This document shows, piece after piece, positions 25,365 to 64,000 of a DNA stretch of 64,000 nucleotides. Origin of the DNA: Candidatus Woesebacteria bacterium (GTDB taxonomy: Bacteria; Patescibacteriota; Microgenomatia; UBA8517); NCBI GenBank assembly GCA_016700095.1, contig CP065002.1, positions 28,074 through 92,073 of the forward strand, read 5' to 3'. Numbering within the stretch: position 1 is the stretch's first letter; every line of letters begins with the position of its first letter. Under the pieces are notes generated by a model that was given only the letters and a program-made list of their open reading frames with translations, was not told the origin of the DNA and did no database searches. The position numbers and the translations under genes are program-made.

Positions 25365-25763
25365 TTGACGAACTTAGTATACAAAGATCCTTTTAGAGGA
25401 TTATTCAGTCTACCTAGTCTTTCCGAAGATGTTGAGGATTATTCTGCGCTTCAAAGAGGGCTAAGGGTTAAAGAAACAAAAGGAAATCTGTTGATTGAAG
25501 CTGTTGTGGCTGGTGTACCAGACAACAACGTTGAGGTTTCCATCGAGGATGGAATTCTTACTATCAAAGCTCAATCTCAAGAAGTTAAAGATGAAGATGA
25601 ATATAAATCATCCAGCTATCAATACTATTACACCGTTGCACTTTCGGGTGGACAATGGGACAAGGCCGATGCCGAGGTCGAGCATGGCATAGTTAAAATA
25701 AGCATTCCGAAAGAGGAATCGCAAAAGGCAAGAAAGATAGCTGTCAGATCAAAAAAGAAGTAA
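25365..25763 (+). CDS. Small heat-shock protein, Hsp20/alpha-crystallin family
   Basis: The alpha-crystallin domain is present (LLIEAVVAGVPDNNVEVSIEDGILTIKAQ ... GIVKISIPK). The start was set at TTG 25365, 9 nt downstream of the RBS. The ORF-track ATG at 25335 overlaps the RBS. Confidence 0.75.
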   Translation: MTNLVYKDPFRGLFSLPSLSEDVEDYSALQRGLRVKETKGNLLIEAVVAGVPDNNVEVSIEDGILTIKAQSQEVKDEDEYKSSSYQYYYTVALSGGQWDKADAEVEHGIVKISIPKEESQKARKIAVRSKKK

Positions 25764-27071: not shown

Positions 27072-28258
27072 CTTAATGGTTTAGGCGTTGGTGTTGGTGT
27101 ATTTGTTGGTCTAGGCGTACTTGTCGGTCTTGGTGTATTTGTTGGTCTAGGCGTCGCAGACGGATACCACGTAGGCGTTGGCCTTCGTGTTGGGGATGGT
27201 CCAAATGTTGGCGACGGATTGGGTGTAACGGTCTGCGTGATTGGGGTCGGAGTATCGGGCGTCGTAGAAGGTTCTATGGACGGAACGGAAGTTGGGCTAA
27301 TTGTCGGAGACGGCAAGATAGGTTGTATTAAACCAATTACTCCCCCAGAGCGTGGCGATACGATAAGCGTAAGTGTTTCACGTACATCGGGAGACAGTCT
27401 GTGTGACAAATCCATACTCACCTGAATACTTGACATCAGCGATGTCGGATATAAATTAGTAGAAGGAATCACTTCATAAACAAAATCCGTGTGTGCCCAA
27501 TCTAGCTTGATTTCCGCTCTACCGGCTACTTTGTAGTATTCAACAACGATATTGTATCTTGTATTTTTGTCGAGCAAGATATTTCCTTGCGCTTGAGACT
27601 TTCCGTCTTTCCATTTGTTTATCACTATTTTATCGTCAATAGTCAATCGCGACCCGTCATTAGAATTCAATCTAAAGCGATAATTTCCCCTATTCCGTGT
27701 TTCAAGTTGCCCGGTCCAACGAATCGAATACGACCCGTCGTCTATCTCAGGGCTTGGTGTATCAAAACTCCAATCAAAATCTATATCCGGATCAATTCGC
27801 GTAATTTTATAACCGGTAAAGTTCTCGTTGTCAAAGTAGTTTCCAGTCAGTCCTATTCCTGCTTCGAGCTCAACAGGATCAAGCGACGATGAATATTTTG
27901 TTACTTGGAAATTCTCAACAATCACATCTTTGCTTGTCAGAGGATCATCACCCTTATACAAACGTCCGTCAATCACTCGATACTGCACAGCATCAACACC
28001 AAGAACTCCTCCTGTAAATGTAACGTTTTCGTTAGCCCATTTTACACTGTTGCCTATCTCCAGCTGTACATCGTTTTTACTTTGTTCAAGCGTTTCAAGC
28101 TTTTTTTGTTTAGTGCTAATACCAAAAAGAGAGACAATCAGGTTTGAGGCAACAATAAATATTGCAGTTGAAACGACCACTCCAATTAGCACTTCAATCA
28201 GAGTTATACCTTCAAAATGCGAGTGTTGTTTATGAGTAAAAGGAATTCTTGATTTCAT
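27068..28258 (-). CDS. Type IV pilin/pseudopilin-like protein with PA14 domain and Pro/Thr-rich repeat tail
   Basis: The N-terminus has the prepilin motif [15 protein letters not shown] (G|ITLIE). A central PA14-like segment is present ([13 protein letters not shown]...[40 protein letters not shown]). The C-terminus is [37 protein letters not shown], encoded by ~27-nt tandem DNA repeats. Confidence 0.65.
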
Positions 28259-28259
28259 A

Positions 28260-28760
28260 TCATTTTTCGGGAACTCGATAGCTTAATAGTCTGGCGGTAA
28301 CCGCTTTTTCGTTTCCTGATTCAATCCACTTGACACTGGTTTCAATGATTCGGCTGTTTACGTCTATTTCACCACTGCAGATATTATTAAGCTCATAATC
28401 TTCAATTCTTGCTCCCGTGTCCACATGTCTGCATACACTTATTAGTTTTATACTACGTGTAAATCTGGCCTGTAAATTGTTCTCTTCCCCAGTCACGAGA
28501 ATCCAACTATCTTCGTCCTCATCGTATGCCGGATGATACAAGCCATCCGAATATCCATCCCAATCTCCAATAATGGCGTTGTGTGCTATTTCGACACCTT
28601 CTTGAACAAGCAAACTTGCCCCCGAGTCATATTTGCTTTTCTGTGTTTTAACCTCAAGCATCCCGATGGAGGCATAAAGTGACAAACCTACTAATGAAAA
28701 AATCACGATTGCAATCAAAGTCTCGATAATCAGAAAACCCTTTATATTGTTATCTTTCAT
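28260..28760 (-). CDS. Type IV pilin/pseudopilin-like protein (minor pilin)
   Basis: [24 protein letters not shown] has the prepilin cleavage/N-methylation motif G|FLIIE plus a hydrophobic helix. Its stop sits 2 nt from the next gene. Confidence 0.6.
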
Positions 28761-28797
28761 TGTTGTTATAACGTGTTACGTAACCTAAATAGTATTT

Positions 28798-29286
28798 TTA
28801 TTCCAAACTCTCAATATTGGATACTTCAACTACGCCTGTTTTAAATATTTCAAGAGTAATTTTCTTTTTCTTTGAGTTTACAAGCGTTATACTTGCGGCA
28901 TTTATCGTTTCTCCCGTCCCCTTCTCAAACCAGATGGTAAAATTATGGTCGAAAGTAATTCCGGGATCGAGACTGAATGCTGATTCCTTGGTATACGAAT
29001 CAGCGTTACCGGAAACTACATTATATTTCACATACGTATCGTTTATTATTCCCCAATTAGACTTTTGATTTGCTTCTCGAGCAAACACGTGTGCATTTCT
29101 AATATGATCCGCCAGTGCTTCTGCAGACGCATTAAGCGCTTGGTTGTTTCGTGAATCCCTATAAGTAGTTACGAGTGGTACAATCAGCACTCCAATTATG
29201 GAAACGGCGATGAGCATTTCAATAAGCGTAAACCCGTAGCCACAGGTGTGTTTATTGCATTTTTTATATTTGAAACGGGCAAACAT
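28798..29286 (-). CDS. Type IV pilin/pseudopilin-like protein
   Basis: The N-terminus ...GYGFTLIEMLIAVSIIGVLIV carries the canonical G|FTLIEML prepilin motif. Confidence 0.65.
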   Translation of the reverse strand: MFARFKYKKCNKHTCGYGFTLIEMLIAVSIIGVLIVPLVTTYRDSRNNQALNASAEALADHIRNAHVFAREANQKSNWGIINDTYVKYNVVSGNADSYTKESAFSLDPGITFDHNFTIWFEKGTGETINAASITLVNSKKKKITLEIFKTGVVEVSNIESLE

Positions 29287-29298
29287 GGCAGATTAAAG

Positions 29299-29808
29299 TT
29301 ATTTTACGACTATTTGTGCTGGACTTGAAAATATTTGCAACGGTTTATCAAATGCCGTGATTTGTATGTCTTCTAGGGGGATTTCTACGCTTATATTTCC
29401 ACTTTCTTCAGCCAAAACCGTAACCACACCTAGTTCCACTTGTCCCTTAAACGGGCGTTGATAATCAATTGTTTGATTTTTTGTAATTATCCCATTTGAC
29501 GCAATATTTATCGCTATAGATGGAATTATAAGCGAATCACTTTCAAACATAGCTATTACTTTCAAATCAACTTCGTTACCGCGACTAACAACCACATTCC
29601 CGGGTTCGAACCACAATCTGAGTTCGGCATCCGATTGAGCCTGTGGTGAAAATCTTAAGTTTGGTGGAGTTGTTATAAAGAAAATGAAGGCTGGCAATAT
29701 TGCTGCCAGCAAAAAGACGGGGAGTAACTTTTTTGTAAAAGATACAATCTTTAAATCGTACCTTCTTTTCTCCGGCTTGTCTTTGGGGACGATAAAATGA
29801 TAATCCAT
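29299..29808 (-). CDS. Hypothetical membrane-anchored protein, first gene of the pilin operon
   Basis: One TM helix (LLPVFLLAAILPAFIFFITT) is followed by a beta-rich extracytoplasmic region. Confidence 0.4.
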   Translation of the reverse strand: MDYHFIVPKDKPEKRRYDLKIVSFTKKLLPVFLLAAILPAFIFFITTPPNLRFSPQAQSDAELRLWFEPGNVVVSRGNEVDLKVIAMFESDSLIIPSIAINIASNGIITKNQTIDYQRPFKGQVELGVVTVLAEESGNISVEIPLEDIQITAFDKPLQIFSSPAQIVVK

Positions 29809-31277: not shown

Positions 31278-31970
31278 TTGGGTAATATGAAACAAAAAAG
31301 GCTGATTCTGCCTCAATTACACCACCTTGTTTATACTAACAAGGTGGCAATCAAAGCCCTTTTTCCCAACCCGGGTATGATTTCTAGTGTACGAAAAGGG
31401 AGCAAGGTATCACGATATCTTAGATATATCCTCGAACGCATACAGATTAAAAAAATCTTTGCAACAAATTTAGCAATAATGATTATTGCGGCAAATTACA
31501 TTCCACAAACCAATCAACCCTTCCTCGTCGGAGCTTCGGGTGAAATAACAAACGAAGGAGAAATCATCCACACCAGTAGTCCCTTGGTCATAACTACGAA
31601 TAAAAAAATTCAATACCCCGTGAGATCGATTAATATTTCACAAGGTTATAAAATTTACCATCCTGGTATAGATTTTGACGGAAATACAGGTGATATTATC
31701 TACCCAATTATGTCGGGATATGTGGAAGAAATAAACTACTCAAATATTGGCTATGGAAATGCGGCATACATAAGACATAACGACACAACCACGTCGTTAT
31801 ATGCTCATTTGTCACATATTTTTGTTAAGGTGGGTACGTTCGTTGATTTTAACGATCCAATCGGTACAATGGGGTCAACCGGTCGGTCATCGGGTGATCA
31901 TTTGCATCTTGAGATCCATATAAACGGTAAACCGACAAATCCTCTCGGTTTACTACCTGGTTTACAATAA
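31278..31970 (+). CDS. M23-family (LytM-like) metallopeptidase
   Basis: It has HPGIDFDG...LYAHLSHIFVKVGTFV...GSTGRSSGDHLHLEIHING, the HxxxD and HxH motifs. Confidence 0.7.
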   Translation: MGNMKQKRLILPQLHHLVYTNKVAIKALFPNPGMISSVRKGSKVSRYLRYILERIQIKKIFATNLAIMIIAANYIPQTNQPFLVGASGEITNEGEIIHTSSPLVITTNKKIQYPVRSINISQGYKIYHPGIDFDGNTGDIIYPIMSGYVEEINYSNIGYGNAAYIRHNDTTTSLYAHLSHIFVKVGTFVDFNDPIGTMGSTGRSSGDHLHLEIHINGKPTNPLGLLPGLQ

Positions 31971-51287: not shown

Positions 51288-52400
51288 ATGAAACTACAGG
51301 TACTTCAAGAAGATCTGACGCGTGGATTAAATATTGCTGCTCGATTTGCAAGTCCCAGATCGCAATTACCAATACTAGGAAATATTTTGTTTAATGTTCA
51401 AAAAACAAAACTAACACTTTGTGCTACAAATCTTGAAACATCAGTATCTATTCCAATTGGAGCAAGTGTCAAAGAAATGGGTAATATAACGATTCCTGCA
51501 AGAGTAATAACGGATATTGTTGCAAATTTACCGAGAGGACAAATAAATTTGGAAGCCGCTAAAGAAAACCTGGTAGTTTCTTGCGAAAAATATACATCAA
51601 CTATATCGGGGACAAACGATGCCGATTTTCCAAGTGTTCCGACAGCCTTGGGAAAGGAGAAATCAAGTTTTCCAAAGGAATTGTTTACCGGCGCATTGTC
51701 TCAGGTGATTTTTGCGGCTAGCTCTGACGAAACGAGACCTGTTTTAACAGGTGTACTAATTATTTTTCAAAAGAATTCATTAGTGTTTGTTGCCACAGAC
51801 GGATTTAGACTTTCTCAGAAGTCGGTTGTTGCAACTGGAGTGGGGGATACTGACCAGGTAATTCTTCCTAAAAATACATTACTTGAACTGCTTAGATTAG
51901 CCAACGAGAGCTCGAGTATTGATATTGCATTTCCAAAAAACGAAAGTTTGGCACTTTTTGGACTAGGAGATATTGTTCTTTCTTCGAGAATTATTCAAGG
52001 TGAATTTCCAAATTTTTCAAAAATCATTCCCCAAACGACAAATATAAAAATTGATTTGGACAAAGAAGAGTTGGTTAGGTCGGTTAAACTGGCGAGTGTA
52101 TTAGCTCGTGACAGTGCTAATGCAATTACTTTCAAAATAGATAAGACGGGATTGGTTGCGACATCACAAAGCAGACAAGCCGGGAAGCAGGATATTCAAA
52201 TTGATGCACGAGTTGAATATTTAGAAGGCAATGATGATGTACTTGAAATAGCCTTTAATTATAAATTTATAGAAGATTTTCTGTCGTCTGTAAAAGGGGA
52301 TAGAGTCGTCGTAAAATTAACTTCAGCTAATGCACCGGGAGTATTTGAGGATCCGCAAGACAAAGATTATCTTCACCTTATCATGCCTGTGAAGTTGTAA
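51288..52400 (+). CDS. dnaN: DNA polymerase III beta sliding clamp
   Basis: It begins MKLQVLQEDLTRGLNIAARFAS... and has a three-domain beta-clamp architecture in 370 aa. Confidence 0.85.
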   Translation: MKLQVLQEDLTRGLNIAARFASPRSQLPILGNILFNVQKTKLTLCATNLETSVSIPIGASVKEMGNITIPARVITDIVANLPRGQINLEAAKENLVVSCEKYTSTISGTNDADFPSVPTALGKEKSSFPKELFTGALSQVIFAASSDETRPVLTGVLIIFQKNSLVFVATDGFRLSQKSVVATGVGDTDQVILPKNTLLELLRLANESSSIDIAFPKNESLALFGLGDIVLSSRIIQGEFPNFSKIIPQTTNIKIDLDKEELVRSVKLASVLARDSANAITFKIDKTGLVATSQSRQAGKQDIQIDARVEYLEGNDDVLEIAFNYKFIEDFLSSVKGDRVVVKLTSANAPGVFEDPQDKDYLHLIMPVKL

Positions 52401-52418: not shown

Positions 52419-53396
52419 TTACAGTTCTACACTGTATAGGTTGTCGTTATAATCGACCATATACATTATTCCGTTAATGTAAGCCGAAATTTCTCTTATG
52501 TAACCAATATTTTCTATCGGTTTTTGTTCTGACAAAGACATGTTTGAAACATCAAGGATGGCGTAAGTAGTATTAGGTAAATTTGTAAGTATAAATATTT
52601 GCGAATTATTAATCCAGATAGTCTTGTTACCTGGACGTATTTGCGAATTTCCCATTATGGCCATATCGTTAAGATCATATATCGTCAGATTGCTGGATGA
52701 TTGTATTGCAATCTTTGCTTTATCAGGAGTCAGAGAATATGTATTCCCTAATGACAACACAGTGTTTTCAAGTGTTAGCAAATCGAGAATGCTTACCTTG
52801 CTTGCATTGGGAGAATCATAATCTTCAAAGAGAACAAGTCGGTTTTTAACTATACAATCAACATCGCTTGCAGTTGTTTCTAGTAATGAGATTGGTGAGT
52901 TGCTATTAATTGGGAGTGAGTATAGAATCGACTTTTCCGTGTTTGGATTGTAGTTTCCGATAAAGTAAATTTTTCCTTCTTGTTCTGAAATTGTTGCTGA
53001 GACTATTGGACTGTATTTCGTAAGTTGGATTATGGATGTTAGATTTGTTGATGTATCTATTAATGTTAATGAACTTGCGTTGTTGTGTTCTTTTACGAGA
53101 ATATAACGACCGTCTTGTGAATATTTTTCAACTACTTTTTCAAATAATATGCTAGTTTCATTATTCGTAATGCGGACAAGCTTTCCGTTGTTTGTATTTA
53201 TGCCAATAAGTTGACCGGCAATATTGTTTAAATGAGTTAGCGATTTGTTTCCATCGATTATATCAAGTTTGTTTACAACTACACTTGAATTGTCGATGTC
53301 GATGTCAGCTGAATTATCGTTGAATAAAATATACAACAATATCCCCGTTGATAATACTGCTGCAACAATTAATAAATACTTTATTTTTTTAATCAT
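52419..53396 (-). CDS. Hypothetical membrane-anchored protein with beta-rich extracytoplasmic domain (last gene of T4SS-like operon)
   Basis: An N-terminal TM (YLLIVAAVLSTGILLYILF) is followed by N/S/T-rich beta-strand repeats. It overlaps the upstream gene by 4 nt. Confidence 0.4.
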   Translation of the reverse strand: MIKKIKYLLIVAAVLSTGILLYILFNDNSADIDIDNSSVVVNKLDIIDGNKSLTHLNNIAGQLIGINTNNGKLVRITNNETSILFEKVVEKYSQDGRYILVKEHNNASSLTLIDTSTNLTSIIQLTKYSPIVSATISEQEGKIYFIGNYNPNTEKSILYSLPINSNSPISLLETTASDVDCIVKNRLVLFEDYDSPNASKVSILDLLTLENTVLSLGNTYSLTPDKAKIAIQSSSNLTIYDLNDMAIMGNSQIRPGNKTIWINNSQIFILTNLPNTTYAILDVSNMSLSEQKPIENIGYIREISAYINGIMYMVDYNDNLYSVEL

Positions 53397-54754
53397 GGTA
53401 TAACACAGTTTGTCGAGTAATTAGGGCAGACGCCCAAACCGAATTTTTGTTCAAAGTCTGTTTGAGGGCAAATCGTTCCGTCTCCACCGGGAAAATTTAG
53501 TGAACCATTATTTATGGCAAAGTGTAAATGCTCCGCTGTTGAATTGCCGGTGTTGTCTGAGGTGGCGATGACTTCTCCTGCTTGAACAAAATCACCGACC
53601 TTAGAGTAAATATCGCACGTATGAGCATAATAGTAATTTCTTCCATCGTCACCTGCAAGAAACACGCCATTTCCTCCTGCTGCTGTTTGTAATGTTAAAT
53701 AAATTCGTCCACTGGTGTATGCAAGTAGTGGCAAATGTGCATCTCCAGGGTTGCCCTGTACCCCTATGTCAACAGCTAGATTACCGTCGTGGTGATAACA
53801 ATCGTAACCAAGTCTACCATATTCAGCCATTGGGAAGTAGTAGTTACCCGAGGCAATGACTCCGGTGGCACTTGGTCTTGTGTTAGGATTAGCTGCCGGA
53901 CCCAAACATTCATCGGGAGCATTACCAATTCTTACAGTTGCTGAGGCTTGTGATGATTCTCCTGTTAATCCTTCTGCTGTTGCTGTAATTGTAATTATAT
54001 CGGTCACCGCTGTGTCGTAGTAGCTGGTGCTGTCTGGAAATGCTTGACTATAAGTAAATACAAAAGGTGTCCCAGGGGAAATTTCCTGAGGTGGTGTAGG
54101 TAAGCCTGGATTAATTGGGGGACAGGAGGGAGGGGTTCCTTGTCGTTTTGAAACATAACATCGGTATTCGATGTTGATGTCTGTAAGAACCGATCTCTCT
54201 GCTATTATCGAGACGGTGTACTGAACAGTCCAAGGTAAATTCTCATTAGGTATATTTGTGATACTTGCTGTTTTACTAACTTCAATAAACGCTGAATCGA
54301 CAAGGAACGGATCTGATTGTCCACTCCACGGTGGTACAACCCATGCGCCGGAATTGATAATAAACAGAATTATCGATACGGCAATGGGGATAATTACAAA
54401 AACGATGATAATCGGCGACGCAAGGGCGACACCAACCGCCGCTAAAATACTTAATGTTATGGAAAACGCGTGTGCTGATGCCAGAGCCAATCCACCGAGT
54501 AGATCGCGTGCATCTTTACTGAATTTTTGCATAGCGTTAACCATGCGAGCGATTAATTCTCCGGCTATCTCAGCGGCAACAGCGGCGATCGCATTTCCTA
54601 CCCCGGGAGCTAAACTTCCCAAGGCTTGTCCAGCCGCTCTTACTGTTGCTTTGGTGGCTGCCTTGGTTACAACTTTTTTGGTGACTGTTTTGGCGGCGCT
54701 TCCGGCAATTTGTCCAGTAGTACTTGGTCTTTGATTTTCCTGATCTTTTGCCAT
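53393..54754 (-). CDS. Membrane-anchored M23 peptidase (cell-wall hydrolase of T4SS-like operon; Ala-rich N-terminus)
   Basis: It has an Ala/Gly-rich N-terminus and TM helices (IIIVFVIIPIAVSIILFIIN). The C-terminal domain carries YHHDGNLAVDIGV...YYYAHTCDIY...GNSTAEHLHFAIN (M23 HxxxD / HxH). Confidence 0.65.
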   Translation of the reverse strand: MAKDQENQRPSTTGQIAGSAAKTVTKKVVTKAATKATVRAAGQALGSLAPGVGNAIAAVAAEIAGELIARMVNAMQKFSKDARDLLGGLALASAHAFSITLSILAAVGVALASPIIIVFVIIPIAVSIILFIINSGAWVVPPWSGQSDPFLVDSAFIEVSKTASITNIPNENLPWTVQYTVSIIAERSVLTDINIEYRCYVSKRQGTPPSCPPINPGLPTPPQEISPGTPFVFTYSQAFPDSTSYYDTAVTDIITITATAEGLTGESSQASATVRIGNAPDECLGPAANPNTRPSATGVIASGNYYFPMAEYGRLGYDCYHHDGNLAVDIGVQGNPGDAHLPLLAYTSGRIYLTLQTAAGGNGVFLAGDDGRNYYYAHTCDIYSKVGDFVQAGEVIATSDNTGNSTAEHLHFAINNGSLNFPGGDGTICPQTDFEQKFGLGVCPNYSTNCVIP

Positions 54755-54758
54755 AATG

Positions 54759-56762
54759 TTATTTTATAATATTTGTACCGACATCTGTTTGCCTGATTGC
54801 ATTGATCGTACTTGGTGACGGTATCTGATTATTTTGTTTTATAACTGTATTTTTTTGTTTTTGCAAAATCTCTCTTGGATTAGTTGTGATTAAGCCGTGT
54901 TCTTCAGGTGATGCAACAATACGGATTGGAACATGGTGATTGCCGGCAAAAAATATTCCTTCTCCGATGTTTGCTCCAAGCAGTAACTGCCTCTCTCCCT
55001 GAGATAAATAGAACACATCACCAATGCGGTCGATTGCGGCAGGAGACTGCTTGAGGAGAATTCTAAGGGCACTGTTTGTAACAATAGCTTTACCAATATC
55101 TTGTGCCAAAAAATCCTCCACGTCTTGAGTGATTGTCGTTAATCCAAGATAGTACTTTCTCGCTCTTTTTACGATCGACCATAGGAATTGTGCACTGTCT
55201 TCGTACCTCATCATATGCCATGCTTCGTCGACAATTAGAATACGTTTTCTCATATCTCTTTTTACTTTGGTCCAAATAAAATCAAGAATAATAAACATGG
55301 CAATCGGTCTTAATTCGTCCCGTAATTCACGGACACCAAAAACCGTAAACGGGTTGTTGATTTCAATGTTGGTGTGTTGGTCAAAAATTCCAACATAACT
55401 TCCTTTAACAAATTTTTCGATACGCGCAGCCAGGTCGAGTGCGGTTTCGACTTCCATGCCGATTAACGCCTTGTAAAGATCTTCCATCAGCGGAGGTTCT
55501 TTCTTTTGAGTTTCTGGGTCTTGGGTGATTCCCTTGGCTTTGTAAGTTGCAACAAGAGCTCGGTCGAGCATGGCGTCTTGTTGGGCGTTTAAGCTTCCCA
55601 TAATAATTTTAAAGAGTGAGTGCAATGACAAAATCTTTAGGCCCAAATTATTTTCACCCTCCTCGTAAATCTGTGACAAATCAAATGGATTAATTCTTTG
55701 CGGTGAGCTGAAAGAGAAATCAATATACTGTCCATCAACAGCATCGGCGAGTACTTTGTATTCGGATTCGGGATCAACAGCGATGATTTCAACACCAAGC
55801 ATGAGTGATCGCACGGATTCCAATTTTACAAAATAGCTTTTTCCTGCTCCGGAAGTCGCAAACACTGTCATGTTGTGATTTTCCAAAGAGAATCTGTCAA
55901 AAATAATGAAAGAGTCATTCTGGGGATTAATACCATACAATATTCCGCTGTCACTGGTTAGTTCTGTGGACGTAAGAGGGAAAGTAGTAGCAAGGGAGGT
56001 AGTATCCATGTTTCTGGTGATATTTAACCTATCAAGTCCAAGAGGAGAAGTTGACAAAAATCCGTTGTTCATATCAAGTGTTGCATTTCTTGGAATAGCA
56101 AGCAGTGACTGAAGAGTGGATGCAACCTGTCTTGTTACGAAATTTAATTGTTCAATATCTGCTGCTCTAATTGTTATATAAAATCCAAATTCAAAAAAAT
56201 GTTCAACCCCTTTTACAAGAGACTCTTGTAACATCCGGGCGTCATCCAACTTTGCCTGTGTTGAAGGGTTGACAATTTTACCGCGTTCCAAATCGGTTAT
56301 GATTTCGGCTTCCATTTCGGCGATTTTGTGTCTGAAATCTTCAAGAATACCTTTTATTTCAACCGGATAGACAAAAAAGGCAATATCTAATGAAGCGTTA
56401 AAATTAATAATTTGCTCTAACCATCCAGGTGAAACATAGCGTGGGTAACCTGCAATAAATAGCGTGCGAAAATAGACATTGTTAATTCTAAGATGGTTAA
56501 AATCAACCTCTATTTCTTGAGGGGCAACCACATCGAGGACATTTGCATCCTTGTCGAGAATTTCGGATATCGGATCGCGGAACTTTGGTTTTACAAATTC
56601 GTCGCGAGTTATTCCTCCTTCTTTGTTTGATTTGGATGTTTTATCTTGGATTTGATTAACCAACTTCTGTTGCGGAGTTTTTCCGTCTGTTTCGGGAGTG
56701 GGATCAACAACATTGTGCACCTCCGTCTCTTTCTGAGTATTTTTTTTACCAAACAGTTTCAT
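54759..56762 (-). CDS. VirB4/TrbE/CagE-family T4SS ATPase (ATPase portion)
   Basis: It has NVYFRTLFIAGYPRYVSPGWL (the conjugative VirB4 GYPR region), the Walker A FATSGAGKSYF, DPESEY and the Walker B ILIVDEAWHMM. Confidence 0.75.
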   Translation of the reverse strand: MKLFGKKNTQKETEVHNVVDPTPETDGKTPQQKLVNQIQDKTSKSNKEGGITRDEFVKPKFRDPISEILDKDANVLDVVAPQEIEVDFNHLRINNVYFRTLFIAGYPRYVSPGWLEQIINFNASLDIAFFVYPVEIKGILEDFRHKIAEMEAEIITDLERGKIVNPSTQAKLDDARMLQESLVKGVEHFFEFGFYITIRAADIEQLNFVTRQVASTLQSLLAIPRNATLDMNNGFLSTSPLGLDRLNITRNMDTTSLATTFPLTSTELTSDSGILYGINPQNDSFIIFDRFSLENHNMTVFATSGAGKSYFVKLESVRSLMLGVEIIAVDPESEYKVLADAVDGQYIDFSFSSPQRINPFDLSQIYEEGENNLGLKILSLHSLFKIIMGSLNAQQDAMLDRALVATYKAKGITQDPETQKKEPPLMEDLYKALIGMEVETALDLAARIEKFVKGSYVGIFDQHTNIEINNPFTVFGVRELRDELRPIAMFIILDFIWTKVKRDMRKRILIVDEAWHMMRYEDSAQFLWSIVKRARKYYLGLTTITQDVEDFLAQDIGKAIVTNSALRILLKQSPAAIDRIGDVFYLSQGERQLLLGANIGEGIFFAGNHHVPIRIVASPEEHGLITTNPREILQKQKNTVIKQNNQIPSPSTINAIRQTDVGTNIIK

Positions 56763-56763
56763 A

Positions 56764-57426
56764 TCAGTTAAATATCCCCCTTTCTTTTATGGGCGGCTCG
56801 GGATTGTAAATGTTATAAACCAAATCGATAAGCTCATCTGTTTTAAGTTGCCTTAAATTTAAACCTAATCTCCTAGCCTGTCTTGCGATATGTTCACGCT
56901 TGGGGTAGAGAGCTATTTTAGCTTTCCTTACGACATAAGCTTTTGTATACGGGACACCGGGTTGTGTTTGTTTACTACCAGGTAAAGAAAACGATTTTGA
57001 AACACCAAGTTCGTATTGAGTAAACGGCAGTACAATATAAAACTTTTTACTTAAAACATTTTTCTTCTTTATTGAATCGCTCATGAACTTTTTGTAACCA
57101 CGCATAATTTCTGTTAGTTTGGGATTAGATATGCTTTTTTCAGCGTCGTCCAGCAAAATTAAGTAATTAGAAATGTCTTTTTGAAGACTTCTGACCACAA
57201 TTTGAATATGAAAAGTAAGAGAATTCAAAAGTCCCGCATAACCGGCAATTACAGCTTCCTGTTCGTTTTCGCTAAGTAGGCCGAAGTTAAGCGAGGTGGA
57301 TTCCAAAATAAGTGTTACGGCACCGTTTTTGTAAAGCACCAGGTCTTCAAAAATTTCGGCAATGGGCAAATGATTTTGTGTTGTTGTTGATAATGGACGA
57401 TCGGGAAAAAATAATGGTAATTTCAT
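56764..57426 (-). CDS. VirB4 N-terminal-domain-like protein (separate ORF; stop 1 nt before ATG of the ATPase ORF)
   Basis: IAEIFEDLVLYKNGAVTLILESTSLNFGLLSENEQEAVIAGYAGLLNSL resembles the N-terminal (CagE_TrbE_VirB-type) region normally fused to the VirB4 ATPase. The junction is TGA-T-ATG, so the two ORFs are in different frames. Confidence 0.4.
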   Translation of the reverse strand: MKLPLFFPDRPLSTTTQNHLPIAEIFEDLVLYKNGAVTLILESTSLNFGLLSENEQEAVIAGYAGLLNSLTFHIQIVVRSLQKDISNYLILLDDAEKSISNPKLTEIMRGYKKFMSDSIKKKNVLSKKFYIVLPFTQYELGVSKSFSLPGSKQTQPGVPYTKAYVVRKAKIALYPKREHIARQARRLGLNLRQLKTDELIDLVYNIYNPEPPIKERGIFN

Positions 57427-57427
57427 A

Positions 57428-58483
57428 TTAGTTGGTTAAATTGCTGTTTGTCGCCGTTATTGCTATTGGGTCGATTAGAGATCCGGTTACGTTTAGTTTT
57501 ACAGGATCAAACATTAACCCTTCCTTTTCTGTAATAATTTCGTATGTACCGCTTGGCAGTGGTGTTACAATGCCAAAATGTCCAAGCGTATTGCTTTTTA
57601 GAGCTCTTACCGGGCGATTGTCTTCATCTCGTATTTCCAGAATTGCCCCACTAATTATTTTTCCGGCACCATCCATCACTTGACCGACCAAGATGTTTGG
57701 CTGGGTTGGTGGAATTGGAGGAGCAGACTCCGAAGAGAAGACGGCTTGTTTTACGAAACTGTTTGCTTGGCTTGCAAGCGAACCGGTAACTGTAGTCGTA
57801 GCTTTTGCTACGTCGTTGTCACTTACCGTGATATTGACAGCATGGTCAATTAACGGCTGAGTTGCTTTTTGATTTATTGCGTTACTACTAACCGGTGTTG
57901 GTGTTGCAAGCGGGACTTTAATCGTATCTGTATTAGTGGGCATTACCGGTTGATTGGTGTTACCGAAATGCTCCGATATTTTAACTAAAAATTGTTTCTC
58001 TGTTGTTTCAAGTCCCGACAATGCTTTGGTTGCCTCCACTTGAATACCTACTGGCGCCATTGCAGACTCTGTGGGCTCGGAAGGTACTTTCTGCGACATT
58101 TGTTGTTGGATTTGAGCCGGAGTTTGGTTTTGTGCCAATGTTTCCATCATTTCGGCGTCGGAGGCAAAAAAGGAAAGCGGTTTTGTTTTTATCCATGTAA
58201 AAATAGTTGGTGAATAAATCGATTTAACAAATAATATTAACCACTTTTCAAGCGGTCTGTCCTCGAACGGGAAAAAAGCCAAAGCAATCCCAAAGAGGAA
58301 TGAAATTAGCATGAGTGGAAGTTTTATGAAGGTGAGTAAATTTGTCGAATACAGGAGCAGTGCAATCAGTGCACCCGCTGCTACTTGAAAAAATTGTTTT
58401 AAGGTCATGTCACCAACAAGCCTAAATTGATAGGAGGTAATTTCTTGCGGAATTGGATGCTGGACTTCGAATTCTACTGACAT
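57428..58483 (-). CDS. VirB3/PrgI-like two-TM protein with C-terminal transthyretin/carboxypeptidase-regulatory-like domain
   Basis: YQFRLVGDMTLKQFFQVAAGALIALLLY plus a second TM resembles the (G)(L/P)(T/S)(L/F)(R/K)Q motif of Gram-positive VirB3-like proteins. The C-terminus GQVMDGAGKIISGAILEIRDEDNRPVRALKSNTLGHFGIVTPLPSGTYEIITEKEGLMF is a CarboxypepD_reg-like beta-sandwich. Confidence 0.4.
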   Translation of the reverse strand: MSVEFEVQHPIPQEITSYQFRLVGDMTLKQFFQVAAGALIALLLYSTNLLTFIKLPLMLISFLFGIALAFFPFEDRPLEKWLILFVKSIYSPTIFTWIKTKPLSFFASDAEMMETLAQNQTPAQIQQQMSQKVPSEPTESAMAPVGIQVEATKALSGLETTEKQFLVKISEHFGNTNQPVMPTNTDTIKVPLATPTPVSSNAINQKATQPLIDHAVNITVSDNDVAKATTTVTGSLASQANSFVKQAVFSSESAPPIPPTQPNILVGQVMDGAGKIISGAILEIRDEDNRPVRALKSNTLGHFGIVTPLPSGTYEIITEKEGLMFDPVKLNVTGSLIDPIAITATNSNLTN

Positions 58484-58655
58484 AATTTAGTGTGACTAAT
58501 AACACCAACGAATACAAGAAACGTGTTCTTGTATTAGTTCTGCTAAATTAAGCTTACAGTGTGAACAAAGTAATTCAAGTATTAGGGTTTTCACAGGATT
58601 GGGAACTAACGAAATCGCACGATGAGTGTTAATATTATTTCAACGATAACTAATC

Positions 58656-59180
58656 ATGGTGTATATTTCAATCTTAATTGTAGTATTTGTTGTATTTTAT
58701 TTTGTGAAACGTGACTTTTTTTACGGAAACAACGCTCCGTATGTGCCATCCGACGCGGATGTGGTTGAAAGAGTAATGGAGATGGCTGAAGTTAAGAAGG
58801 GTGATGTTGTTTATGATCTAGGCGCAGGAGATGGTAGATTTGTTTTAGCTGCAGCCATGAAAGGTGCAAGCGCTGTGGGAGTAGAACTCAATTTACTAAG
58901 AAGCATATATGCTAGGGTTTGGTTTAGAATACTTAGAATCGACAAGACAGCTAAAATTATAAGGCAAGATATTTTTAAGACAGATTTATCGAAAGCAACA
59001 GTTGTAATTTGTTATTTGCTTCAGGAAACTAACGATGCTTTGCAAAAAAAGTTGGAAAAGGAATTAAAACCAGGCACCAAAGTGATTTCTATTGCTTTTA
59101 AGTTTGCGGGTTGGAAAGAAGTGAAGTTTGATGGAAGGGGAGTTGTTTACGGTCCAATTAGAATGTACGAAATTGAATGA
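58656..59180 (+). CDS. Small class I SAM-dependent methyltransferase with N-terminal TM helix
   Basis: VVYDLGAGDGRFVLAAAMKGASAVGVELN is SAM-binding motif I (D/E-x-G-x-G-x-G). It is 174 aa, on the opposite strand to the flanking T4SS genes. Confidence 0.5.
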   Translation: MVYISILIVVFVVFYFVKRDFFYGNNAPYVPSDADVVERVMEMAEVKKGDVVYDLGAGDGRFVLAAAMKGASAVGVELNLLRSIYARVWFRILRIDKTAKIIRQDIFKTDLSKATVVICYLLQETNDALQKKLEKELKPGTKVISIAFKFAGWKEVKFDGRGVVYGPIRMYEIE

Positions 59181-59224
59181 AGGTACATTTTGAATAAACA
59201 ACGAGTAAAATGTTATAATTATTT

Positions 59225-61165
59225 ATGAGTATAGAAGAAAATGACGGTGATCTTTCGATAATACGCGCTGCTGAGACGTTGGGGTATGATGAACGGGCAC
59301 AGCGCGAATTTCAACGATACGAAGAAACAATGAAACTCAGGGCTGAACAACGCCAAATTGCACCTGAAAGAGAAATGTTGGAAAAAGCAAGAACTGCGGA
59401 ACAGGTTACTTATGCTATGAGATTATTTTCGGATCAAACGGAGGCGGCGAATAATGATCATCCGGAGTTTTATGACAGATATGGCCAGTTAAATTTCTTT
59501 TTGACAGCGGAAGGAAAACTTAGATCATGGGAAGCGGGAACCAGAAAGAAGAGAGCTGAACTGGCGGCGCTTGGTTTTACTGATTTGACAGCGCACGAAA
59601 TAGTGCCTGACTTGCAAATTGATCAAGTACAGATACTTGATAGTATGAGTGATAAGCAGAAACAAGAAATCGAAGCAAGAAACCGACAAGCTCTGACACA
59701 TAACCAAAAAAACCAAGAGGAAAGAGCGATTATTGAGGAAAATCGAGATGGTGTTATTGACACACTAAGAAGAGAATGTCGCTTGTTTGCTGCACGTGCG
59801 AAACTCACTCGAGAAACAGCAAACTACCACAATGCAGGAGGCTCAATTACTGAAATTGCGAAAGGTTTTCTCGCCCCAGCTCCTTATCAGATTAATGCTG
59901 AAGATTTTGAGGCAATATTTACCGCTGGTCCGGGTTTGGTTTTGTCACCGGATAAAAGAAACGAATTTCGGAATAACCCCAATGCGCGCCATTTAGGCAA
60001 TGATGTTAGCATGGCGATTATGTTGTATGATCTGGTTGCCGCGTCAGAAAATAAAACCAAGATGTTGGACTATATACAATCACCTGGTTTTAAGCGAATA
60101 GTAGCAGGGGAGAAAGAGGGGGAAGTTCTTCGTGGCTTCACTAAAAGGTTTATAGGTAATCCCAGTAATTGGAAGGAAGAAAATAAAAAAGTAGAAAACG
60201 CAAACAATCCGTCTCAATCTCTTTATACAGGCGAAAGAACAAAAGAAGATCTCAAGATAGAAGCAAATGATAGAGGGTTGTTAACAGTCGCAGGGAATGT
60301 TTTTGCCCACAAAGAATCGACTAGAACAAGGCAAGTGGTCGACGATATTGTGTGTCAATTGGTAGGAGGAAACCAAACTGCACAATTAATAGCAAAAAAC
60401 TTATATCGGGTGTCGGGTGCAGCAGCTGCAGCAGGTGCTGAAATTTATAAAGATGGCAATAGATATTTACCGGAAGTGGAAGGATACCCGGCAGGTTCTG
60501 ATGACCTGGTTGCTCTAACACAATTTAAGGCTAAGCAAATAAAAGACCGCGAGAAAGGTAGTCCTTGTGGGGTAATTTATACATGTGGACTTTATCCAGA
60601 TCTTCTTGCTGATTTTTGGTCTTTTCAAACTGTTGAAGGAGCAAAAGGGAGTATAAAAGTGAAAAGGTCACTTCGTGAATATATGTGGGGTGGAGGAGAT
60701 GGTGTACACGACCTCGACGCCGGTCACTTATTGGGTGAAGTAGATTGGAAGAGTTTTCCTCCAGAATTATGGCAGGAACACAAACTTAGAATGTATTATG
60801 GTGGACGAGATAGAACCGGTTTGGCAGAGTTACTCAAGAGAGTCAGGTTTACCCCCGACGAATTGACTAATTATGAATTTTGGCAAACTCTAAATAAGGC
60901 GGTTGGAATTGTGGTACATGACTCACTGGTAACTGGGGGTAATTACCGAGACTGGGATGGTCGGATGGATCAATTGAGAACAGCTACTGCTAATATGGCA
61001 CTAAGGATAAAAGGACTTTTTGTATACGGTGTGAACACGAGACAAAACCAGTGGCTTAGAAGGGATCACATGGACCAGATTGATTCCAGAACTCGTGGTA
61101 TAGACTTAATGAATGAAGCTGTTAATGACGCAAAATTTCAATTTACACAATTTAACCCTAAGTAA
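59225..61165 (+). CDS. Hypothetical 646-aa soluble protein embedded in T4SS-like cluster (candidate cargo/effector)
   Basis: A long intact ORF with no recognisable motif and a visibly higher GC content than its neighbours. It is co-directional with the methyltransferase. Confidence 0.45.
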   Translation: MSIEENDGDLSIIRAAETLGYDERAQREFQRYEETMKLRAEQRQIAPEREMLEKARTAEQVTYAMRLFSDQTEAANNDHPEFYDRYGQLNFFLTAEGKLRSWEAGTRKKRAELAALGFTDLTAHEIVPDLQIDQVQILDSMSDKQKQEIEARNRQALTHNQKNQEERAIIEENRDGVIDTLRRECRLFAARAKLTRETANYHNAGGSITEIAKGFLAPAPYQINAEDFEAIFTAGPGLVLSPDKRNEFRNNPNARHLGNDVSMAIMLYDLVAASENKTKMLDYIQSPGFKRIVAGEKEGEVLRGFTKRFIGNPSNWKEENKKVENANNPSQSLYTGERTKEDLKIEANDRGLLTVAGNVFAHKESTRTRQVVDDIVCQLVGGNQTAQLIAKNLYRVSGAAAAAGAEIYKDGNRYLPEVEGYPAGSDDLVALTQFKAKQIKDREKGSPCGVIYTCGLYPDLLADFWSFQTVEGAKGSIKVKRSLREYMWGGGDGVHDLDAGHLLGEVDWKSFPPELWQEHKLRMYYGGRDRTGLAELLKRVRFTPDELTNYEFWQTLNKAVGIVVHDSLVTGGNYRDWDGRMDQLRTATANMALRIKGLFVYGVNTRQNQWLRRDHMDQIDSRTRGIDLMNEAVNDAKFQFTQFNPK

Positions 61166-61192
61166 AAGAGGCACAGAATAATAATTGAGATA

Positions 61193-62785
61193 TTAAATAC
61201 CCCATTTTTTAAGTTGCATCCAGTGTTGGACATCTAGCCATCTAGCACTTGTACCTCCAGGTGTTCCAGCCTTTCCTGCCTTTTTGGATACAAAACTATA
61301 AGCTCCAGTCTTGGCGCCTTCGCGAGAAGCAGCAACTCCAGCTGACAGTGCTCCTGAGGCAAACGCCAAACCTTCACCAATTCCGCGACCCATGTCATAA
61401 GGCCTGCCTGCTACCATACCTTTTACAATGTCTGCTGCTTTGGGTGCAAGAGCAATGATTGCTACGCTTGCTCCTAGCCAAATAAGATCGGTGTCCCCTG
61501 TACCTCCACCATTGAGAAATGGAGGTGTCCAAGCTCTTCCTTCAAGTCCGGGATCTAAAACATCAAATGGCCATAGATTATCCAATTGACCCAAGGTTGC
61601 GATATCAACTATTCGGGTAAACATATTAGTATACGCTGCTCTCAAAAATACAAATGCCAAAACATACATAAAACCAACTGTTGGGTAAACAGCAAGGAGT
61701 GAAGCTAGATTTTTTATCCACCCGGAAAAACCACTTCCGCCGATCGCGCCCAAAAGAATTTGAATCGGTCCAAAAATAATTGCAAACATAATTAAAACAA
61801 AAGTTTTTAAAAGCATCCAGGTTACTCTAAAGGCAAGAATAAGAATGACAATTGACATGATAATTGACACTATGGCTACAAGCAGGCCAATTGCCGATCC
61901 CTGTGAGGTAATTGCCATTACGATACCGGCGGGGTTTGAAACGAGTGTCCAGAAAAGTGCACCGGTGAAGAAAAGCCAGTATTTAAACATAACCATGAAT
62001 GCACTCTGGGCGTAAGTTAATTGTCCGAATAATTCTGACCAAGACTGTGTTGTACCACTAGCCACCACATTGGCCGATTGCAAAATTGCAGCAAGTAAAC
62101 CAATAACCACGTACATGAGGTCAATCATAAAGCCGGCAATGGCGTAAGAAAAAGTAATCAGTATTAATGTGGTAAACACCTTTGGTAGAGCCGACTGGAC
62201 GGTGATAACGGTTTGAGGAGAAATTTTAACACGGAACATAATCATGAAAGACATAATGATAATAATAAGAATTAGAAAGCTGTAGGAAACATTTCGTGTA
62301 GCTTGCCAAAGATTAAAAATGAGAGCACCACCATTGTCAAAACCAAAGCCTTGTGCGCTTGCCTCGGGAGTTAAATGCCACCTGTTAGCAATATTTGCAA
62401 AGTAACTAAGTGACGATACGGAGTGGATGTTAAGCGTAGCAACAGGTGAAGTGGTTTCAATTTGTCCGATGCCCGTCAGTTCTCGTGCTAATATCACTAT
62501 ACACTCCGCGGCATTTCCCTGAATACCAGCCATCACAATACAGGTGATAAAAGGGTGGTCAATCGAGTAGATTAATCCATAAATTACCCATTTAACCTGA
62601 GCGGCGGTATAGCGTTCACCGAAAAGTTCCGATTCGGTTCCGGATTGTACTGTGTTCACAAATTCGGGATATGTTTGTTTGTACCACTGTGCCTTAACAG
62701 GTTGAGCAGTCAAATGCATGAGAGGGAATGCAAAGATAATTAGAGAAAGGAAAACAAGCAAAGATTTATTGATAAATTTTCTCAT
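61193..62785 (-). CDS. VirB6/TrbL-like polytopic membrane protein
   Basis: A signal peptide and an ~130-aa extracytoplasmic segment are followed by 7 or more TM helices and a Gly/Ala-rich C-terminal tail, typical of VirB6/PrgH/TcpH-type T4SS channel proteins. Confidence 0.45.
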   Translation of the reverse strand: MRKFINKSLLVFLSLIIFAFPLMHLTAQPVKAQWYKQTYPEFVNTVQSGTESELFGERYTAAQVKWVIYGLIYSIDHPFITCIVMAGIQGNAAECIVILARELTGIGQIETTSPVATLNIHSVSSLSYFANIANRWHLTPEASAQGFGFDNGGALIFNLWQATRNVSYSFLILIIIIMSFMIMFRVKISPQTVITVQSALPKVFTTLILITFSYAIAGFMIDLMYVVIGLLAAILQSANVVASGTTQSWSELFGQLTYAQSAFMVMFKYWLFFTGALFWTLVSNPAGIVMAITSQGSAIGLLVAIVSIIMSIVILILAFRVTWMLLKTFVLIMFAIIFGPIQILLGAIGGSGFSGWIKNLASLLAVYPTVGFMYVLAFVFLRAAYTNMFTRIVDIATLGQLDNLWPFDVLDPGLEGRAWTPPFLNGGGTGDTDLIWLGASVAIIALAPKAADIVKGMVAGRPYDMGRGIGEGLAFASGALSAGVAASREGAKTGAYSFVSKKAGKAGTPGGTSARWLDVQHWMQLKKWGI

Positions 62786-62865
62786 TAAACTAATATTAAC
62801 TCAGACTAATTTATTGTACAAGCGTCTTTCGGTATATTCCACATCAGATTGTAAAAGTGTATCTA

Positions 62866-63417
62866 TTAATTGCAAAAACTAAGTGGATATGATTTGCCGG
62901 CTTTGTCTTCGTTGACACTTCGCGATGTAGTCGTAAATATTTTTAAGGCACATGCTTTGCTTTCTTCGATTCTTAAAATCTCCAACAGTTCTTGTTCAGC
63001 CTCTTTCTGGTATTTATCAAAATCAGAATTGAGGATAGAAATTAAAAAGCTGTCATCACTACTAAAATATAATATTTGGAAATTGTCGGAATCGTAAGTG
63101 AGATAATCACCGTTTTTGTTTATTGGATTTCCGTCTTTGTAATAAAGTTCACTTTCAACCACTTCTGCAGTAGATTTTTTGGGTATGGATGGGGTTTTAG
63201 TCGGAAGAACTTCATTGGTTTTTTCCTCCTCATTTTTCTTGTTACCCGGGATTAAGTCGGAAAAAGAGTTAAGAAAAGAGGTTTCGGTCTCGTTAATGTC
63301 ACTTGTTGGCATTACACCCGTTTGACTAGTGGTATGTTTGGGAAGTAATATCGCCATTACCGTTACAAACAACGCAAATATTACAAACCCGGCAATTATC
63401 ATATTTCCTTTCTTCAT
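62866..63417 (-). CDS. Hypothetical membrane-anchored/secreted small protein (possible VirB8-like component)
   Basis: An N-terminal TM/signal (MIIAGFVIFALFVTVMAILL) is followed by a ~150-aa extracytoplasmic domain. Confidence 0.35.
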   Translation of the reverse strand: MKKGNMIIAGFVIFALFVTVMAILLPKHTTSQTGVMPTSDINETETSFLNSFSDLIPGNKKNEEEKTNEVLPTKTPSIPKKSTAEVVESELYYKDGNPINKNGDYLTYDSDNFQILYFSSDDSFLISILNSDFDKYQKEAEQELLEILRIEESKACALKIFTTTSRSVNEDKAGKSYPLSFCN

Positions 63418-63438
63418 AATTTTATTATAAACATATCT

Positions 63439-63999
63439 TTATGGAATTCCGCATCTTGTTGCTGCGATTGTCCAGTTACTGCTGAAATTACATATTGCAT
63501 TTGAAGGTGGGTTATATGATCCACAAGCCAGTCTTACTGCCTCACGAATATTTCTTTCTGGATCGATGTAGTTTTCAACACACGCATCAAGTAAGGATTG
63601 ATTTGCAACCTCGCACCAGTTTAACGGGTGGGTCCCCGAGGGTAAATAATCAATCACAAATGACCCTGGGCAGCGAGGGGTAAACGTTGCTAGGGGATGG
63701 AGATTTATCTGGAAAAGACCGACGCTGTAGTCGGGTGAGACTCCCGTTAAGCACCCATAGTTAGTTCTTGTTGGATTACCTCCCGATTCTTGTGCGCAAA
63801 TCTGACTGGCGTTTTCGGCAGCAACTTGGTTGGGGAAGTAATTTAGCAAGTTGGTAACGCTGCACGGTCCGTTTTCAACGGGAGCGCAATTACCAGGTTG
63901 AGTTGGCGGTACAGGATCTCCCGATCCTGGAGGCATACCGTGTCTTAGATATAAAGTATTCATAACATAGGGTCTAAGTAAATCCTGCATGGACACCAT
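63439..63999 (-). CDS. Lysozyme-like (SLT/Rpf-type) cell-wall hydrolase domain protein; N-terminus may lie beyond the window end
   Basis: ICAQESGGNPTRTNYGCLTGVSPDYSVGLFQINL carries the catalytic E-S-G-G-N and GLxQ motifs of lytic transglycosylase/Rpf lysozyme-like domains. The reading frame is open to the window edge. Confidence 0.55.
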   Translation of the reverse strand: MVSMQDLLRPYVMNTLYLRHGMPPGSGDPVPPTQPGNCAPVENGPCSVTNLLNYFPNQVAAENASQICAQESGGNPTRTNYGCLTGVSPDYSVGLFQINLHPLATFTPRCPGSFVIDYLPSGTHPLNWCEVANQSLLDACVENYIDPERNIREAVRLACGSYNPPSNAICNFSSNWTIAATRCGIP

Positions 64000-64000
64000 G

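Follow-up and report, generated by a model that had tools for sequence, protein, structure and literature searches.

A Gram-positive-type type IV secretion system beside the replication origin of a Woesebacteria genome

Patescibacteria systems already described and the Woesebacteria locus

Recent studies have described type IV secretion systems (T4SS) in the ultra-small Patescibacteria, and the present work deals with one of them, found at positions 52419-64000 (11.6 kb) of a 64,000-nucleotide (nt) stretch of Candidatus Woesebacteria DNA, the whole of which is called the window below. The T4SS of Southlakia epibionticum (SEML1_0006-0019) is akin to Gram-positive conjugative systems; pilins are present in it, and neither a coupling protein nor a relaxase can be recognised (Wang et al. 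2023, PMC10633639). Transposon sequencing has shown that it is essential for epibiotic growth, as are its pilins (PMC10633639), which makes the Patescibacteria T4SS the first one shown to be essential for its own bacterium. A survey of 3,035 Patescibacteria genomes then detected VirB4 in 2,417 of them, mostly as a single clade nested in MPF_FATA (Quinonero-Coronel et al. 2025, PMC12102498). TrsD is the commonest partner, PrgI/VirB3 and arrays of VirB2-like pilins are present, and relaxases are nearly absent, with 109 homologues in all, only 15 of which lie close to virB4 (PMC12102498). The same survey lists dnaA, dnaN, rnpA and rpmH as frequent T4SS neighbours in Microgenomatia and Paceibacteria, and describes VirB6 homologues as 'scarce' in Microgenomatia (PMC12102498). 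A 2025 review covers the Patescibacteria T4SS likewise (PMC12857230). The kind of system, the lack of relaxase and the proximity to the origin were thus all published between 2023 and 2025 (PMC10633639, PMC12102498, PMC12857230). What the window brings is not a system of a new kind but a Microgenomates version with a complete inner-membrane set, including a predicted VirB6-fold member missed by sequence profiles. The additions of the present analysis are modest: this fold-level VirB6 candidate for Microgenomates, and a fast-evolving protein in the slot between virB6 and prgI.

The region is read here, with a probability of about 0.85, as the Woesebacteria form of the Patescibacteria T4SS, a system fixed in the chromosome near the origin and derived from MPF_FATA conjugation machinery, in which relaxase-dependent DNA transfer has been lost. 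An original prediction made from the letters of the window had proposed a Gram-positive-type T4SS beside the replication origin, and this is borne out by the profiles of VirB4, TrsD, PrgI and M23, together with the skew and the DnaA boxes. The minus-strand open reading frames (ORFs) listed at that time all exist at the places given, but two plus-strand genes, which account for 2.5 kb of the 11.6 kb, had been left out (58656-59180 and 59225-61165). The cluster comprises ten genes (Table 1), eight of which lie on the minus strand in two co-directional groups separated by the two-gene plus-strand unit. The first group (64000 to 61193) runs from the lysozyme-like C-terminus through the protein of 183 amino acids (aa) to the 530-aa protein. 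The second one (58483 to 52419) reads PrgI, TrsD-like, VirB4, M23 and 325-aa protein, with gaps of 1-4 nt or a 4-nt overlap between consecutive genes.

Table 1. Genes of the T4SS cluster and of the adjoining origin region, in window positions (TM, transmembrane)
Feature	Position	Strand	Remarks
dnaA	49578-51053	+	From the ORF list
dnaN	51288-52400	+	From the ORF list; directly beside the cluster
N-terminally anchored protein, 325 aa	52419-53396	-	Last operon gene; TM segment 4-27; 4-nt overlap of its start with the end of the M23 gene
M23 metallopeptidase, membrane-anchored, 453 aa	53393-54754	-	PF01551
VirB4 ATPase, 667 aa, signature T4SS motor	54759-56762	-	NF045971, 4AG5, Walker motifs
TrsD-like protein, 220 aa, akin to the VirB4 N-terminal domain	56764-57426	-	NF041427
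PrgI/VirB3-like protein, 351 aa	57428-58483	-	PF12666; two TM helices
S-adenosylmethionine-dependent methyltransferase, 174 aa	58656-59180	+	N-terminal TM; first of the two plus-strand genes
Slot protein, 646 aa, cytoplasmic	59225-61165	+	No family; between the VirB6-like gene and prgI
Polytopic membrane protein, 530 aa, putative VirB6-like	61193-62785	-	Predicted fold
N-terminally anchored protein, 183 aa	62866-63417	-	TM segment at residues 2-30
Lysozyme-like (SLT_3) C-terminal domain of the large secreted Cys-rich 'c2' protein	63439-64000	-	N-terminus past the window end

The cumulative GC skew has its minimum near 48-50 kb and the skew changes sign at about 49-50 kb; DnaA boxes are clustered at 49519, 50975, 51051, 51134 and 51240. 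Together with the dnaA and dnaN genes, these two features place the replication origin beside the T4SS cluster. As for the source, the 530-aa protein is a 100% match to the hypothetical protein IPM62_00405, encoded on a 1.27-Mb contig of a Candidatus Woesebacteria metagenome-assembled genome (MAG) classified in the Patescibacteria group, Microgenomates group. The only contig that matches exactly is Logan SRR11674018 (L001), which stops at about 63945 of the window, and an exact 30-mer from the window end had no match in the JGI metagenomes.

The comparison with relatives is based on 80 loci from GTDB species representatives, which were fetched with the profile of the 530-aa family and do not include the source genome. 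Loci with a lineage in their title all belong to Woesebacteria, Microgenomates or Patescibacteria, save some mislabelled third-party MAGs, and those cut by contig ends show only part of the gene order. The cluster is also found, whole or in part, on 7 metagenomic contigs.

Motor genes and a candidate VirB6

The 667-aa ORF had been named VirB4, which holds true: it scores 363.5 bits (E 2.3e-108) against NF045971 (conju_CD1110), for a cutoff of 325. It also matches P-loop_TraG (E 6.5e-29), the Thermoanaerobacter VirB4 domain of PDB entry 4AG5 (E 1.2e-44) and TrwK (E 1.3e-4), and its Walker A (ATSGAGKS) and Walker B (ILIVDE) sequences are both intact. It is predicted from these profile matches to be a VirB4 of the monoderm (MPF_FATA) type, with intact nucleoside triphosphatase motifs. 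Its conservation is unusual for Patescibacteria. The window protein is 82% identical to that of L082, one of the two closest relatives, and among GTDB species representatives VirB4 keeps 88-96% identity where the VirB6-like proteins have no more than 32-45%. In six relatives (L012, L027, L029, L035, L067 and L075; e.g. L035:8488-12063), VirB4 reaches about 1190 aa, the extra length being an intein-looking insertion directly after Walker A (SGAGKS / ... VHN / SYFVKLE).

VirB4 was first thought to be spread over two ORFs. There are indeed two ORFs, but the smaller one is a separate TrsD-like gene, as it is in 59 related loci. The encoded protein matches NF041427 (TrsD/TraD) with an E-value of 4.9e-7, under the curated cutoff, and also resembles the N-terminal part of the VirB4 models NF045975 and NF045971. 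A sequencing frameshift in VirB4 can be ruled out, since in these 59 loci TrsD-like and VirB4 proteins are separate ORFs of stable lengths (medians 230 and 628 aa), with junctions that differ from one locus to another (-4, +12, +1, +2 and others). TrsD and VirB4 are best described from these sequences as a conserved, ancestral two-gene arrangement of the pGO1 type. The next gene upstream had been recognised as VirB3/PrgI-like, and PF12666 confirms it with 33.6 bits for a cutoff of 27 (E 5.8e-8; TM segments at 32-75). The C-terminus of this protein carries a CarboxypepD_reg-like beta-sandwich domain (PF13620, E 2e-5), and PrgI lies directly upstream of TrsD-VirB4 in 61 loci.

One might suspect that an old conjugative element survives here only as a decaying, non-functional remnant, given a VirB4 that looks 'split', unrelated plus-strand genes that interrupt the cluster, and the fact that no relaxase, type IV coupling protein (T4CP) or VirB8 is recognised in it. 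Such decay is hardly credible when every ORF is intact, the junctions are tight or overlap, the Walker motifs are complete and the TrsD/VirB4 split is ancestral. Moreover, VirB4 keeps 82-96% identity between species that share no more than 32-47% in their other proteins, which indicates strong purifying selection on VirB4, and S. epibionticum cannot do without the homologous system (PMC10633639).

The motor genes of the locus find their counterparts in the staphylococcal pGO1/pSK41 Trs, pCF10 Prg/Pcf and C. difficile CTn2 systems, which share a VirB4 of the CD1110 family and a VirB3 of the PrgI/TrsC type. The separate TrsD-like gene ahead of virB4 is a trait of the pGO1 subclass. As in these MPF_FATA conjugation systems, dedicated peptidoglycan hydrolases (lytic transglycosylase and peptidase) are present and there is no outer-membrane core complex. 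The Woesebacteria locus differs from them in that it has no relaxase, oriT, coupling protein or PrgB-type adhesin, and in being chromosomal and vertically conserved rather than carried by a mobile element. Its probable association with VirB2-like pilins, which are lacking in Gram-positive systems, is another difference, as is the distribution of its hydrolase domains over two proteins.

Agreement with the survey of Patescibacteria is close (PMC12102498): an MPF_FATA-like VirB4, TrsD, PrgI/VirB3, proximity to dnaA/dnaN and no relaxase or nearby T4CP. Pilin arrays, seen here in the relatives, are abundant in Microgenomatia according to the survey. Two points differ. VirB3 was reported there as mostly not associated with virB4 in Microgenomatia, whereas here PrgI abuts the TrsD-VirB4 pair in the 61 loci mentioned above. 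VirB6 was scarce, whereas here each fetched locus has a candidate VirB6-fold protein.

This VirB6 candidate is the polytopic 530-aa protein. The proposal that it is VirB6-like found no echo in sequence searches, and draws its support from the predicted fold. No link of the family to VirB6, TrbL or PrgH was obtained with Pfam and NCBIfam for the protein itself, with Pfam for 20 members, or with a profile against PDB sequences, and these negative tests agree with the published scarcity of VirB6 in Microgenomatia (PMC12102498). An AlphaFold2 model built from a 20-sequence alignment has an overall predicted local distance difference test score (pLDDT) of 62.7, which rises to 70-90 over the TM core (residues 155-465). 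When this model was compared with the PDB by Foldseek, the R388 TrwI/VirB6 chains ranked first (E 0.21, probability 0.93), and no structure reached the E <= 0.001 threshold. Identity to R388 TrwI/VirB6 and to Legionella DotA is only 10-12%, with no profile signal, and the 530-aa protein differs from both by about 150 extra N-terminal residues, which carry conserved Cys/Trp positions and form a low-confidence part of the model. The structural comparison supports the view that the 530-aa protein could be a VirB6-like channel subunit, and hence the VirB6 "missing" in Microgenomatia. A protein with this putative fold occurs in every fetched locus and was invisible to the sequence profiles tried.

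Envelope genes, conserved gene order and mobility

The first gene of the cluster is cut by the window end. It had been taken for a lysozyme-like hydrolase, which stands as far as the domain is concerned, although what the window contains is just the last ~186 aa of a larger protein. By itself it gives weak matches (SLT_3 E 0.028, SLT E 0.084). It aligns however to the C-terminal end of the c2 proteins (700-1170 aa), over their final ~140-180 residues, with E-values down to 1.5e-26, and 9 of the 29 aligned c2 C-termini match PF18896 SLT_3 (best E 4.9e-12). A glutamate (E71) in an ESG motif is near-invariant among these C-termini. The c2 protein is a candidate cell-wall hydrolase of the VirB1 type. 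The second hydrolase, proposed earlier as a membrane M23 protein, is confirmed by PF01551 (E 2.4e-14, 53.7 bits, cutoff 28.7) and by TM segments at 85-142. The gene of a large TM-containing protein comes after virB4 in almost every locus, and 25 of these proteins cluster with that of the window; the 453-aa protein is the predicted cell-wall endopeptidase of the T4SS. A second, stand-alone Peptidase_M23 gene (31278-31970, plus strand, 230 aa, E 1.2e-26) is located 21 kb away from this cluster, and the operon M23 protein is therefore not the only M23 enzyme of the cell.

Two small anchored proteins complete the envelope set. The 183-aa protein, whose TM segment confirms the anchor assigned to it earlier, has no Pfam or NCBIfam family match and no credible PDB relative. 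A similar gene between those of c2 and of the VirB6-like protein is found in only about 12 of the 80 loci, as well as in L082 and in L083, the other closest relative (38-39% identity), and its distribution points to an accessory gene of a subclade. The 325-aa protein had been described as beta-rich and anchored; the anchor is clear, and the beta-propeller-like signal is weak (DPPIV_N E 2.7e-4, under cutoff). It is probably a beta-propeller-like surface protein. Only the protein itself was retrieved from 5.8 billion proteins, with no PDB match, and in relatives this position is taken by another small anchored protein (148-404 aa).

Pilin genes are plentiful next to this set in relatives: a cluster of 465 small ORFs, drawn from 67 loci and located upstream of c2, belongs to the PF18895 T4SS pilin family, with a median of 8 genes per complete array. 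L082 and L083 have one pilin gene directly upstream of c2, and L083 has two more farther upstream. The pilin gene or genes of the window genome probably lie beyond 64000, judging from the position of these homologues.

Read toward the origin, the recurrent gene order is as follows. On one strand come c10, DUF5657, bPH_2 and a SpoIID-like gene; then, on the other strand, about eight T4SS_pilin genes, c2 (~850 aa), in some loci a 183-aa-like gene, and the VirB6-like gene. After a large gene on the opposite strand, PrgI, TrsD, VirB4, a TM-hydrolase and a small anchored protein follow in the same direction as the pilins. They converge with dnaN, followed by dnaA, and dnaN is present wherever the locus extends that far. 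The boundary comparison with related genomes, which had been suggested as a check, thus shows a chromosomally conserved cluster and no island, with an order that recurs in the 80 loci. The block divergent from the pilin array is seen in 28-46 loci and comprises the SpoIID-like, bPH_2 and DUF5657 genes and that of a 477-aa anchored protein (e.g. L048:37-4226). This block, which is outside the window, may belong to the same envelope machinery. As to orientation, the PrgI-TrsD-VirB4-M23-325-aa operon (52419-58483) reads toward dnaN and the origin (~49-51 kb), that is, head-on to the replication fork. This convergence with dnaN is also found in relatives, and the published idea of a gene-dosage benefit is silent on such an orientation.

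Two origins had initially been left open for the cluster, a re-purposed chromosomal T4SS or a part of an integrated element continuing past 64000. Under the second one, it would be a piece of a Gram-positive-type element, either an integrative and conjugative element (ICE) or a plasmid that has integrated, with a relaxase, a coupling protein and an integrase encoded beyond 64000. Its best VirB4 match is indeed a family of ICEs and conjugative transposons (NF045971 CD1110), and the window ends inside the first gene, the upstream part of which is outside it. The GC content of the cluster (0.40-0.41) is also slightly above that of the window (0.38), but the GC content at third codon positions (GC3) is inside the range of housekeeping genes, and the composition of the cluster is native. 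The claim that the window has no relaxase, VirD4, integrase or pilin is upheld by the ORF scans and the pilin hidden Markov model (HMM). No relaxase, ATPase of the VirD4/TcpA type or integrase was found in the cluster with Pfam and NCBIfam, or with Pfam in the 33 other window ORFs of at least 140 aa; those with a known family are mainly of housekeeping or envelope function (UvrD, AddA-like, MetRS, LeuRS, GroEL, TsaD, L25, Jag, YidC and others). No att-like or significant direct repeats were found flanking the cluster. Related loci reaching that far hold the same chromosomal site beside dnaN/dnaA. Past the point equivalent to 64000, their DNA encodes pilins and envelope proteins (SpoIID, bPH_2 and DUF5657, or PMT_2 and PAP2 in the closest relatives) and no mobility genes, and the Pfam-scanned representatives of recurrent gene clusters in these flanks include no relaxase or coupling protein. 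Finally, a relaxase close to virB4 is a matter of just 15 cases across the 3,035 surveyed genomes (PMC12102498). Because of the conserved site, the native GC3 and the lack of mobility genes and att-like repeats, the ICE explanation is unsupported and very improbable; synteny and GC3 favour the re-purposed chromosomal T4SS. The T4SS of the window is intact, and is most probably not an ICE. Promoter and terminator scans of the cluster gave results no better than those of shuffled sequence.

The variable slot and possible functions

The first of the two plus-strand genes encodes a methyltransferase that matches NF041081 (protein-lysine methyltransferase-like, E 1e-26, under cutoff) and DOT1 (E 1.6e-5). 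L082 and L083 have it in the equivalent place, with 61% identity; it is missing in L084-L086, and replaced by a glutamate dehydrogenase gene in L087 and L088. This methyltransferase is subclade-specific and probably not a part of the T4SS. The second gene occupies the slot after the VirB6-like gene, where an opposite-strand ORF of 526-1134 aa is found in 75 of 81 loci. Most of these slot ORFs (68 of 75) have no predicted TM segment, and a Walker A motif occurs in only 6. In three relatives looked up (four contigs), the slot gene stands in the same place, with its upstream partner gene absent or different. A single superfamily for the slot proteins was considered and rejected, since HHalign left the groups of slot ORFs unconnected, at a best probability of 11.5%.

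Identities between the window and its closest relatives give a scale for this divergence. They amount to 82% for VirB4, 70% for TrsD, 61% for the methyltransferase, 45-48% for PrgI, 46-47% for the VirB6-like protein, and 29-39% for the 183-aa protein, M23 and the c2 C-terminus. The 646-aa slot protein has no BLAST or phmmer match in the same relatives, and three different families fill the slot in the window, L082 and L083. Between two loci, homology of the slot proteins can be recognised only if their VirB6-like proteins share about 80% identity. By these comparisons, the slot protein appears to be the fastest-evolving gene product of the locus. Cassette replacement in the slot had been argued from the VirB4 identity, and this argument was withdrawn, as VirB4 stays at 88-96% even where VirB6-like proteins are down to 32-45%. 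VirB4 is too conserved to serve as a clock, and extreme divergence and replacement of the slot protein are therefore inseparable. A tentative suggestion, with rather low odds, is that the slot protein is a dedicated partner of the T4SS, either a translocated effector or a substrate receptor replacing the missing coupling protein. Its fast evolution suggests tuning to the particular host bacterium, in which case the slot would mark host specificity in Woesebacteria. Should it be a true substrate or specificity factor, the slot protein would offer a way into what such machines do to the host cell.

The closest functional reference remains the T4SS of S. epibionticum ML1, compared here from its published gene table and descriptions rather than from sequences. 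Both systems lie beside dnaA-dnaN, and both read PrgI, TrsD-like, VirB4, then a large envelope protein or hydrolases, toward dnaN. A VirB6-like polytopic protein is encoded upstream in both, with a large protein between virB6 and prgI; lysozyme-like and peptidase genes are present, and no relaxase or coupling protein is recognised. The large protein of S. epibionticum is SEML1_0011, an essential helical ARM-repeat protein of 998 aa, as annotated by structure, and by analogy of position it may be the counterpart of the slot protein. Its gene is however on the same strand as its neighbours, whereas that of the window is on the opposite strand. There are other differences. The S. epibionticum lysozyme gene is downstream of virB4, whereas here the domain belongs to a large protein encoded upstream of virB6, and the VirB6-like protein has 1088 aa there against 530 aa here. 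S. epibionticum also has a gene of the NTF2-like (VirB8) fold, none being recognised here, and its pilin genes are divergent, whereas those of Woesebacteria are co-directional with c2 and virB6. Last, the two organisms belong to different classes, Saccharimonadia and Microgenomates.

A working model may be drawn from these likenesses. The lysozyme-like and M23 domains would open the peptidoglycan locally, PrgI would anchor VirB4 at the membrane, and PrgI, TrsD and VirB4 would form a motor at the cytoplasmic face. The VirB6-like protein would provide the membrane conduit and the base of a VirB2-like pilus, and the small anchored proteins would be lineage-specific surface parts. If the genetics of S. 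epibionticum can be transposed, the machine would serve episymbiotic host interaction, by protein export or molecule exchange, and neither conjugation nor ComEC-dependent uptake.

A DNA-uptake machine, comparable to H. pylori ComB or archaeal Ced, would import host DNA for transformation or to obtain nucleotides. It deserves consideration, as Patescibacteria are without de novo nucleotide synthesis (PMC12857230) and the lack of relaxase agrees with import. In the ABY1 class, comF/recG/radA are found together with the T4SS (PMC12102498), but the window ORF scans revealed no competence genes in or adjoining the cluster. VirB4 has a weak similarity to CedB (E 1.3e-14), which amounts to 53.7 bits for a cutoff of 700, and conjugative VirB4 families score far higher. 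Transformation of S. epibionticum requires comEC and type IV pili, and comEC deletion abolishes competence without affecting viability, whereas the T4SS is essential (PMC12857230). DNA uptake is on balance unlikely.

Some points do weigh against the reading of the locus as a fixed T4SS devoted to the host. The host-interaction function of this uncultured organism is extrapolated by analogy from another class, Saccharimonadia, and the VirB4 class assignment comes from profile scores, the 82% identity to L082 and the source organism being only indirect signs that the protein belongs to the Patescibacteria VirB4 clade. No VirB8-like component was identified in the cluster, and the pilin HMM found nothing in the six-frame translation of the window, which ends at 64000. 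Since pilins lie just upstream of c2 in relatives, and c2 is cut by the window end, this last result most probably reflects the window boundary.

Further genes were noticed in the relatives and elsewhere in the window. Four-helix genes of the 23S_rRNA_IVP / bAvd-like type occur as 33 copies in 21 relative loci, often directly upstream of prgI (e.g. L076:14203-14577 and L082:14462-14824); none is found in the window cluster, and no reverse transcriptase was seen nearby. At 25788-29808 on the minus strand, an operon of type IV pilus minor-pilin or adhesin appearance comprises three ORFs close to 165 aa in length, of which two carry an N_methyl motif (one weakly, under cutoff), followed by PA14-domain and VWA-domain proteins. 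Near this operon are the genes of a PEGA+SH3 protein (24312-25193) and of Hsp20 (25335-25763), and the S. epibionticum T4SS is likewise flanked by PEGA and Hsp20 genes.

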